Part shown: positions 301 through 2,130 of the stretch, piece by piece
Layout: every line of letters starts with the position of its first letter
Position numbering within the stretch: the first letter of the stretch is position 1
Origin: Bdellovibrionota bacterium
Lineage (GTDB): Bacteria; Bdellovibrionota_C; UBA2361
Assembly: GCA_044352465.1 (NCBI GenBank)
Contig: JBILDU010000091.1
Location: 1-11,531, forward strand
Direction: 5' to 3'
DNA: 11,531 bases
Notes under the pieces: generated by a model
The model's input: the letters and a program-made list of their open reading frames with translations, nothing else
Database searches by the model: none
Told to the model about the DNA's origin: nothing
Made by a program: the position numbers and the translations under genes

Positions 301-2130
301 CTACTCCTTCGCAAACCGTCCGATCTTCGCCTCAGTGAGTTTTTTGAGATCTGCGCTACTCATGACCAGCGACTCGGTCGGCATACCGCAGTTGAATGCG
401 ACACGGGAATGGGCAAACACCCGTTCGTCGAACCAGGTATCAAGGTTGAGCAGGTTTCCAAACGGCGGAACCCCTCCAACCTCGAGACCAAAACGTGTCT
501 TAATCGCCTCGATATCTTCGAACTCGCACTTCTCTCCAAGTGCGTTTGCGACCTCCTTCATATCGAGCTTCATGTGGGAAGGAACGTTCACCTGAAAGTT
601 TTTCTTGGTCGTCTTGCCACGGAGGATGATCGCCTTCACTCCCTCCTCCATGAGAGTCCCCCGCACTCTCGCCGAGTCGGCCGAGGTGGGAGTCGCCTCA
701 TGAACAAGGTGCTGAAACTCCATCTCTTCTTTTTTGAGCTGACGCACGATCTCGTTCCGGAGATTCTCCGCACCGAAAAAAATCTTAGCTTTGAGCCGAT
801 TACCCGCAATCCGTTTCGGATCGGAGGGGAATAGCGAGGCCTCGCGGACGTTCTTAAGCTTGAGTATCGTCATGGTGAGACGCTCAAGCCCCAGCCCAAA
901 ACCGCCGTGGGGGGGCATGCCGTGCTTGAAGATACTTAGGTAATCGCCGAAGTCGGCGGGATCGAGCCCCTTACTCCGAATCCCCTCCACCATCGAATCG
1001 TAGGTGTGTCGGCGCTGACCACCGGAGGTAATCTCGGTACCGGCGCACAAAAGATCGAAGGTATTGGTGAGCTCCGGTTCCGCGTCGTTCGGATAGGAGT
1101 AAAACGGGCGCTTCTTGGTCTTCCAGTCGGTGATGAAGATGCAGTCGGTACCAAATTTTTCAAAGGCGTATTTACAGAGCTCCCGCTCAGCGTTCGGACT
1201 CAGATCATCCTCAGCTCGTTCATCGAGTCCGGTGCGCTGAAAATAGATCTCTTGAGCATCCTGAAATGACACACGGGGGAAAGGGACATTCTCCGGGACC
1301 TTGATGACATCCCCGCCCAACGCTTTTATCTCCTCGGCACAATGCTCGTGGAGATATTGCATGATAAATTTAATGGCCCCCTCCTCAATGTCGAGGATCT
1401 CATGCCAGTGCTCAAAAAACCCCATTTCGAATTCGAGTTGTTTCCCTTCAGTAAGATGACGGGCGGTATTCGAGTTCTCTGCTCGAAAGAACGGCATCAG
1501 GGCGAATACCCGCTCATTAACGCCGACCATCATCTGCTTATAAAGCTGACTACTCTGAGCGAGCGTTGCCGGGTAGCCGAAGTAATCAACCTTAAAAAAC
1601 TCGGCGCCTCCTTCCGAAGAAGCCCCGATAAGATTCGGAGCAAAATACTCAACAGCTCGCACCCGGTCGTGCATGTAGAGTCGGTAGGCGTGGGCGATAT
1701 CCGCCTGGATCCGAAAAACTGCTTGAATTTGGCGATTCCGCAGCGCTATGGGCCGATGGTCTAGAATTGTATCGATGTCGACGTTGAGCTCGTGTTTGTA
1801 GTACTCCAGCGGCGGCACGTCGACCACCGGAGACTCAACGAGAATTTCCGGTTCGACAAGTTCGGCGCCAAGTTCGGCTTGGGTTGTGCGCTGCACCGTG
1901 CCGGTGACGGTAACGACGGTGCCGATCTGAAGACTGGAGATCTTCCTTAACTCCTCTTTGCTTTGGATAACTACCTGCGCGATACCCGCCCGATCTCGGA
2001 TGATCAAAAAGCTTATTTTCCCCAGCGCACGAAGGTTATGATACCACCCCCGTATCGTCACGCGCTGCCCCGCATGAACTGCAAGCTCGGCCGATAAAAC
2101 TCGTGTCACGTCACTCTCCGCTGTTGTCAT
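301..2130 (-). CDS. aspS: Archaeal/eukaryotic-genre aspartyl-tRNA synthetase (AspRS2-like, class IIb) fused to a C-terminal YbaK/ProXp deacylase domain, 609 aa
   Basis: OB-fold (VTIRGWYHNLRALGKISFLIIRD), flipping loop SEGGAE, LAQSSQLYKQ, motif 2 FRAENSNTARHLTE, RPFYS, EITSGGQR, motif 3 GMPPHGGFGLGLERL. No GAD insertion; core of ~445 aa. YKQ and SGGQR point to Asp rather than Asn/Lys. Confidence 0.9.
   Translation of the reverse strand: MTTAESDVTRVLSAELAVHAGQRVTIRGWYHNLRALGKISFLIIRDRAGIAQVVIQSKEELRKISSLQIGTVVTVTGTVQRTTQAELGAELVEPEILVESPVVDVPPLEYYKHELNVDIDTILDHRPIALRNRQIQAVFRIQADIAHAYRLYMHDRVRAVEYFAPNLIGASSEGGAEFFKVDYFGYPATLAQSSQLYKQMMVGVNERVFALMPFFRAENSNTARHLTEGKQLEFEMGFFEHWHEILDIEEGAIKFIMQYLHEHCAEEIKALGGDVIKVPENVPFPRVSFQDAQEIYFQRTGLDERAEDDLSPNAERELCKYAFEKFGTDCIFITDWKTKKRPFYSYPNDAEPELTNTFDLLCAGTEITSGGQRRHTYDSMVEGIRSKGLDPADFGDYLSIFKHGMPPHGGFGLGLERLTMTILKLKNVREASLFPSDPKRIAGNRLKAKIFFGAENLRNEIVRQLKKEEMEFQHLVHEATPTSADSARVRGTLMEEGVKAIILRGKTTKKNFQVNVPSHMKLDMKEVANALGEKCEFEDIEAIKTRFGLEVGGVPPFGNLLNLDTWFDERVFAHSRVAFNCGMPTESLVMSSADLKKLTEAKIGRFAKE
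304..762 (-). other. YbaK/ProXp (INS-superfamily) aminoacyl-tRNA deacylase domain, YeaK/ProXp-y-like, in frame with AspRS2
   Basis: ~153 aa after the synthetase core. Contains HEATPTS..SARVRGT....GVKAII (conserved Lys at 634-636), GxxxP loop GGVPPFG (457-477) and AFNCG...S. The RGT....G.KA and AFN.G patterns resemble E. coli YeaK as I recall it. Confidence 0.85.

Follow-up and report, generated by a model that had tools for sequence, protein, structure and literature searches.

Among the aminoacyl-tRNA deacylases of the INS superfamily (YbaK fold), YbaK acts on Cys-tRNA-Pro and is represented by the structures 2dxa and 1dbu/1dbx. Its E. coli relative YeaK is annotated as a 'mischarged aminoacyl-tRNA deacylase', and a review (PMC11295145) names it ProXp-ST1 and characterises it as a broad-specificity Ser/Thr-tRNA deacylase. 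The same review describes ProXp-ala-ProRS fusions of protists and gives the functions of ProXp-7, -8 and -9 as not known. About half of the synthetases are known to have editing domains; aspartyl-tRNA synthetase (AspRS) does not belong to that half and is usually regarded as lacking proofreading. Here we analysed an 11,531-nucleotide stretch of DNA (the window; contig JBILDU010000091.1 of assembly GCA_044352465.1, from a Bdellovibrionota bacterium), one gene of which encodes an AspRS continued at its C-terminus by an INS-type editing domain. A synthetase with an appended INS-type editor is already a known kind of protein in the case of ProRS; the AspRS partner is what appears to be new. Mention of an AspRS-INS fusion was not found in a full-text literature search that included the accessible portions of PMC3973320, PMC11295145, PMC11286415, PMC3532385 and PMC7373986, and may exist in Liu et al. 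2015, Kuzmishin Nagy et al. 2020, Feng et al. 2003 or Charron et al. 2003.

The initial annotation of the window had assigned the fusion to positions 304-840, that is, residues 431-609, and had described a synthetase frame running past its normal end through a short linker into a complete INS domain. These coordinates and landmarks all proved correct. The segment LFPSDPKRI (residues 433-441) lies where the synthetase family match stops, and the 609-residue frame continues beyond it free of stop codons. The tRNA_edit profile PF04073 matches residues 477-598 over its full length (profile positions 1-123 of 123) with 69.6 bits against a cut-off of 25.5 (E 3.3e-19), far beyond chance. The same architecture recurs widely. 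The best 120 homologues among 5.8 billion clustered proteins, about 602 amino acids long, carry PF01336, PF00152 and PF04073 without exception. When one genome per species was scanned, the editing domain shared an open frame with the AspRS match in 71 of 80 related loci, the remaining nine being more distant unfused AspRS genes or loci cut by contig ends, and within the window's own family each of the five genomes has the full-length fused form. The picture of homologues always encoded in two separate open reading frames (ORFs), which the initial annotation had raised, does not fit these counts. A sequencing or assembly error that merged two neighbouring genes was rejected on the same grounds, the single frame being kept in all of the best 120 homologues and in those 71 of 80 independent loci; no point in favour of such an artefact was found, and we regard its probability as negligible. 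The G+C content of the fusion gene is 53.8%, compared with 57.3% for the genome, and public annotation of the fused homologues reads only 'aspartate--tRNA(Asn) ligase'.

The predicted fold of the appended domain is of the YbaK type. A model of the isolated domain, built with 57 aligned relatives, reached a predicted local distance difference test (pLDDT) score of 94.3. Foldseek aligned this model to 2cx5, 1wdv, 1dbx, 2dxa and 3op6 with template-modelling (TM) scores of 0.73-0.80, sequence identity across the INS/YbaK-fold matches being 12-25%. There were 37 matches at E <= 1e-3, and all of those listed are YbaK/ProX/ProRS-INS-type chains, designed scaffolds derived from 2cx5, or larger proteins that include the fold. 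The catalytic lysine and the GGVPP loop, which the initial annotation had recognised as intact, correspond to K499, within the segment VKAIIL, and residues 552-556; their counterparts in the alignment with E. coli YbaK are K46 and 'GGISP'. Lysine occupies the K499 position in all 161 aligned relatives, comprising the 53 members of the domain's own clade (described below) and 108 others, and within the clade G552 is present in 98% and P556 in 100%. Across 42 fused proteins drawn from chlamydia-, Legionellaceae-, Bdellovibrionota- and CPR (candidate phyla radiation)-labelled records, K499, P555, P556, G558 and F579 are invariant, and conservation reaches at least 90% at H477, S483, R490, G552, D568, N580, G582 and S587. 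Such a pattern is what would be expected of an active deacylase under selection. For the chlamydia-type proteins, identity is 51-68% in the editing domain and 60-75% over the whole length, the domain being conserved about as well as the entire protein. In a full-length AlphaFold2 model both parts were predicted confidently. Residues 440-448 formed the only interdomain segment with a pLDDT below 50, and the predicted TM score (pTM) was 0.67; these two values point to a flexible tether with no fixed domain arrangement.

The synthetase part is, by its profile matches, OB fold, motifs 2 and 3 and GAD-free core, an archaeal-type AspRS. The NCBIfam model NF003483 (archaeal-type AspRS) matches residues 9-441 with 465.2 bits (cut-off 353), and TIGR00458, for the same type, scores 378.9 bits (cut-off 368.4). 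On the fused protein, the NCBIfam models for AsnRS, bacterial AspRS and LysRS all fall far under their own cut-offs, and the GAD insertion (PF02938) was not found by Pfam. Residues R216, A217 and E218 of motif 2 and G410, F411, G414 and R417 of motif 3 are invariant in the 42 fused proteins. The closest solved structure for residues 10-440 is the non-discriminating AspRS2 of T. thermophilus (1n9w/3kfu; E 4e-95), and the best-scoring NCBIfam families for the synthetase part are named aspartate--tRNA(Asn) ligase. Acceptance of tRNA-Asn is reportedly governed by the W26 and K85 positions of T. kodakarensis AspRS. His31 of the window's protein aligns with W26, and T. thermophilus AspRS2 also has His there; Glu86 stands at the K85 position, where AspRS2 has Pro. 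The residue evidence for a non-discriminating enzyme is thus mixed, His31 resembling AspRS2 and Glu86 differing from its Pro.

To place the editing domain within the superfamily, we inferred a 162-domain tree by an IQ-TREE quick search under LG+G4, with branch support from the Shimodaira-Hasegawa-like approximate likelihood-ratio test (SH-aLRT) only. The window's domain falls in a clade of 53 rows (SH-aLRT 98) that leaves both YeaK and YbaK of E. coli outside. This clade comprises 28 archaeal-type AspRS fusions, 20 free-standing proteins of about 160 residues, three fragments, one bacterial-type AspRS fusion and one long protein; over the whole tree, free-standing proteins account for 103 rows. 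YeaK is the nearest named relative by score and signature residues: the fused domain gives 52 bits with YeaK and 46 bits with YbaK in BLAST, and 10 of 11 conserved signature positions are common to YeaK, compared with six to YbaK. The label 'YeaK-like' used in the initial annotation therefore holds as a statement of similarity and fails as one of orthology, as the domain is only 22% identical to YeaK and belongs to a separate, well-supported clade. Orthology with YbaK was likewise rejected from the tree and from the equivalog scores (TIGR00011, 47.2 bits against 153.25; NF007951, 29.4 against 243). Residues K506, N511 and E538 are the clade's own, other relatives having Ala at the E538 position in 89% of cases. 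We dropped the idea that E538 acts as a charge filter against Asp, or forms part of a shared pocket signature, because E538 and N511 are limited to this one clade.

The genome encodes one other tRNA_edit protein, a free 171-residue frame on another contig (C140:27572-28084; PF04073, 102 bits). Its similarity to the fused domain is very slight (24.6 bits). It weakly matches the INS region of a ProRS model and groups with E. coli INS at the end of a long branch; on this evidence it may be a ProXp-ala-type factor. An INS-bearing ProRS was not detected in the genome by PF04073.

Fusion to AspRS is a recurrent property of this branch of deacylases. An exhaustive HMMER search with the domain returned 1005 representatives at E <= 1e-3, and among the best 150 of them, 26 of those longer than 200 residues were scanned for domains. 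The class IIb core PF00152 is also present in 19 of the 26. NCBIfam assignment of 18 of these fusions placed an AspRS family best every time, seven archaeal-type and 11 bacterial-type, and LysRS or AsnRS was the best family in none. Bacterial-type fusions with the GAD insertion are 744-748 residues long when complete, and those without it 625-627. The latter are exemplified by P0129 (625 amino acids) and P0152 (627 amino acids) and by loci L109 and L124, in all of which a GAD-free bacterial-type AspRS carries the editing domain and NF001750 scores above its cut-off with the match in two stretches. The other seven long representatives include four with unassigned N-termini, two with three tandem tRNA_edit domains (P0188, 491 amino acids; P0232, 448 amino acids) and one, P0180 (286 amino acids), in which the domain lies behind a GmrSD_N restriction-endonuclease N-terminal domain. 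Fusions are scattered over several parts of the domain tree, whose well-supported branches force at least four changes of the archaeal-type label and at least two of the bacterial-type label. Because two different AspRS lineages are involved, we count at least two fusion or domain-swap events; in these data, later splits are indistinguishable from extra fusions.

Free-standing members of the clade extend the link beyond fused genes. A genome search with four of them identified 21 loci. Five are single-ORF fusions in CPR bacteria; in one, from Woesearchaeota, aspS and the deacylase gene occupy separate frames that overlap by a few bases; in three, an archaeal-type aspS lies no more than about 0.9 kb away; and one has a bacterial-type AspRS-like gene (putative family) 2 kb away on the opposite strand. 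In two further loci, from DPANN archaea, asnS and not aspS lies 0.4-0.7 kb downstream of the free deacylase gene (NF003037, about 500 bits). With separate genes beside aspS or asnS in some close relatives, action in trans is as possible as the cis editing proposed in the initial annotation. The clade, fused or adjacent to aspS or asnS, spans Chlamydiota, Legionellaceae, Bdellovibrionota-like bacteria, CPR bacteria and DPANN archaea. That AspRS has a dedicated proofreading partner, in the form of a distinct YeaK-like INS clade that was fused to archaeal-type and bacterial-type AspRS at least twice and elsewhere sits beside aspS or asnS, is a tentative proposal, to which we give slightly less than an even chance.

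Besides the fusion, the 3.13-Mb genome of the window (95% complete) has a bacterial-type AspRS gene that is truncated where its contig ends (NF001750, 686 bits), which makes the fused enzyme its second AspRS. It further encodes an AsnRS-like enzyme, a LysRS-like enzyme, GatB and two AsnB-like genes, together with one tRNA-Asp(GTC) and one tRNA-Asn(GTT) gene; AsnA was not matched in this 95% complete assembly. We had considered tRNA-dependent Asn synthesis as the reason for keeping a second AspRS and set it aside, since with AsnRS and two AsnB-like genes that route is not required. Among five other carriers, a bacterial-type AspRS scores above its cut-off in one, the complete chlamydia-labelled chromosome G124. 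In the other four (G125-G128), genomes whose completeness is not reported, the fused gene itself is the best match to the bacterial-type family. Judged from these matches, the fused enzyme appears to be the only AspRS in several other genomes.

The explanation we favour, and consider probable although well short of assured, is that the appended domain is active in post-transfer editing and is functionally coupled to AspRS. The archaeal-type core would aspartylate tRNA-Asp, and also tRNA-Asn if it is non-discriminating, and the short flexible linker would tie its C-terminus to an active INS deacylase of the YeaK-like branch. This deacylase would hydrolyse wrongly esterified tRNA-Asp (or tRNA-Asn) made by AspRS, the CCA end moving within the complex or the tRNA being recaptured after release, and would need to leave Asp-tRNA-Asp intact. 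YeaK/ProXp-ST1, taken as a model, makes small polar residues, for instance Ser or Thr, the leading substrate candidates. The counts of D-aminoacyl-tRNA deacylase (DTD) given below are a weak hint at D-Asp, and the asnS neighbours together with the non-discriminating-type core keep surveillance of Asp-tRNA-Asn alive. Several observations weigh against such a coupled editing function. We know of no AspRS misacylation that needs editing, and none was found in the accessible portions of the literature examined. At nine of the 21 loci with free-standing relatives, no class IIb synthetase is encoded within 3.5 kb, some of the flanks being short. K506, N511 and E538 are absent from the other AspRS-fused clades, so that no common 'AspRS-linked' pocket signature emerges, and both the domain tree and the full-length tree come from quick searches in which SH-aLRT was the sole measure of support. 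No confident domain arrangement comes out of the full-length model, which hence lends no support to a cis path for the CCA end. Finally, the window's genome also has a bacterial-type AspRS, AsnRS and two AsnB-like genes, so that the fused enzyme may be dispensable there.

The substrate might instead be the enzyme's own product on tRNA-Asn. The domain would then police the indirect Asn pathway, hydrolysing Asp-tRNA-Asn released before amidation by GatCAB and so preventing Asp from entering at Asn codons. The best scores with aspartate--tRNA(Asn) ligase families and with the non-discriminating AspRS2 are in line with this, as are the presence of GatB, the AspRS2-like His31 at the reportedly significant W26 position, and the two DPANN loci, whose asnS neighbours point to tRNA-Asn. 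Set against these are Glu86 at the position of the AspRS2 Pro and the fusion of related domains to bacterial-type AspRS as well. Hydrolysing the enzyme's own product would moreover be wasteful, the AsnRS and AsnB-like genes leave the indirect route not obviously needed, and we know of no INS-family member that acts on Asp. On balance this pathway-guarding role seems unlikely. An equally unlikely alternative gives the domain no special tie to AspRS: it would be a general trans-editing factor of the Ser/Thr type, for which the synthetase serves as a tRNA-binding scaffold or a means of co-expression. The signature residues common to YeaK, the broad Ser/Thr-tRNA activity of YeaK (PMC11295145) and the predominance of free-standing rows in the domain tree all suit a general editor. 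A partner chosen without regard to identity is hard to reconcile with 18 of 18 tested fusions being to AspRS, to no other synthetase and to at least two AspRS types, and with free genes that cluster with aspS or asnS.

Loss of catalysis is less probable still. The domain would in that case be an acceptor-end binding or docking module that, for example, raises tRNA affinity or holds GatCAB. Synthetases commonly carry appended tRNA-binding modules, and the model does not fix how the two parts are placed relative to each other. Against loss of catalysis, 42 of 42 fused proteins keep the catalytic Lys and the Gly/Pro loop unchanged, with eight further superfamily positions conserved at 90% or more. 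Lowest among these substrate and function alternatives, and improbable in our view, is clearance of D-aspartyl-tRNA in place of DTD. The window's genome, at 95% completeness, has no match to the DTD family PF02580. DTD is present in three of eight fusion carriers of the phylum, compared with 75 of 116 non-carriers, and in one of five carriers from other phyla. Four carriers, however, possess both the fusion and DTD, the counts are small and drawn from related genomes, incomplete genomes cannot show absence, and we are aware of no D-specific member of the YbaK fold.

The fusion is sparsely distributed in the window's phylum, where eight of 124 genomes carry it: the five of the window's own family, two of another family and one of a third. 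In five other genomes of the phylum the archaeal-type AspRS is unfused and 36-39% identical. Outside the phylum there are 71 fused loci, labelled Chlamydiae/Chlamydiota (37), Dojkabacteria/WS6/Saccharibacteria (10), Legionella/Legionellaceae (5) and Bdellovibrionota-type (2), the rest having various labels. A full-length tree, from which 12 truncated or unfused rows were omitted, was reconstructed from 69 rows with an assumed root on the CPR group. In it, the five rows of the window's lineage (support 99) and the five of the Legionellaceae (support 100) each group into a single clade nested inside the chlamydia-labelled rows. This nesting suggests that each of the two lineages acquired the gene once, horizontally, from chlamydia-type donors. 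One unfused archaeal-type AspRS relative, in an Uhrbacteria-labelled record (L093:4001-6575), lies in an 881-codon open frame; its match is spread over 2575 bases, which may reflect an insertion such as an intein.

If AspRS does have a dedicated editing partner, then synthesis of Asx-tRNA would be subject to an unrecognised error that needs clearance, which could be a non-cognate amino acid attached to tRNA-Asp or tRNA-Asn, or Asp-tRNA-Asn that has escaped. The many free-standing YbaK-family proteins that lack annotation would also gain a likely partner. The fusion offers a handle on whether AspRS errors matter and on how intermediates of the indirect Asn pathway are kept out of translation. 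Its patchy spread adds a further case of gene exchange among the carrier groups, the family being common in chlamydia-labelled genomes.

Table 1. Coordinates of the fusion gene, its parts and the related archaeal loci (window positions unless a locus is named).
Feature	Position	Strand	Basis or remark
Whole gene, AspRS + editing-domain fusion, 609 aa	301..2130	(-)	One ORF, no internal stop; three Pfam domains
Stop codon of the fusion gene	301-303	(-)	
OB-fold anticodon-binding domain, residues 24-98	1837..2061	(-)	PF01336, 52.8 bits
Class IIb catalytic core, residues 120-437, without GAD insertion	820..1773	(-)	PF00152, 240 bits
Class II motif 2 'FRAE', residues 215-218	1477..1488	(-)	Seen in translation
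Class II motif 3 'GGFGLGLER', residues 409-417	880..906	(-)	Seen in translation
Flexible linker, residues 440-448	787..813	(-)	pLDDT <50 in the full-length AlphaFold2 model
Predicted INS-superfamily (YbaK-fold) aminoacyl-tRNA deacylase domain, residues 449-609	304..786	(-)	PF04073, model, Foldseek
Pfam core of the tRNA_edit domain, residues 477-598	337-702	(-)	PF04073
Codon of K499, conserved catalytic Lys of the superfamily	634..636	(-)	Aligns with Lys of 'YKTLL', E. coli YbaK
'GGVPP' loop, residues 552-556, GXXXP-type loop of the superfamily	463..477	(-)	Alignment
Free deacylase gene then asnS, DPANN archaeal loci	L113:3516-5923, L114:3495-5567		NF003037

Two open frames lie upstream of the fusion gene on the same strand. 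The nearer, of 203 codons (window 2140..2751, reverse strand), stops 9 bases ahead of the synthetase start codon, a spacing at which the two genes may be co-transcribed. Its product has a hydrophobic N-terminal stretch and Gly-rich segments, and no Pfam match to it was found. The second is a giant open frame (window 3097..11529, reverse strand) that continues past the window end, with at least 2810 codons, or 2735 counted from the first TTG. It had no Pfam match at E <= 0.001, and a search of the ESM Atlas gave no useful lead (best score 0.76).

Compared with the systems described to date, the synthetase part of the fusion is closest to T. thermophilus AspRS2, with which it has in common the domain order, the lack of a GAD insertion and a His at the position of residue 31. 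AspRS2 differs in having no editing domain, residue 419 of its 422-residue chain aligning with residue 440 of the window's protein, and in its Pro at the position of Glu86. The bifunctional AspRS/GatC (NF009460) is, by its family name, also an AspRS with an extra C-terminal module; that module is GatC and not a deacylase, and the window's protein scores 77.9 bits against the family's cut-off of 1379. On the side of the editing domain, E. coli YeaK belongs to the same fold family and has 10 of the 11 signature residues (H, R, K, G, PP, D, N, S, D), whereas it is free-standing, 22% identical and outside the clade of the window's domain. YbaK has the same fold (TM 0.76), with the Lys and the GG.SP/GGVPP loop in alignment; the fused domain nevertheless stays under its equivalog cut-offs and agrees with it at six of 11 signature positions. 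A precedent for the whole architecture is the INS domain of ProRS, together with the ProXp-ala-ProRS fusions of protists, in which a class II synthetase and an INS deacylase with the Lys and the Gly/Pro loop likewise occupy one polypeptide. The domain described here resembles the ProRS INS domain with TM scores of only 0.62-0.70 and 12-16% identity in Foldseek; its partner is AspRS, and it is placed at the C-terminus, neither between motifs 2 and 3 nor at the N-terminus.

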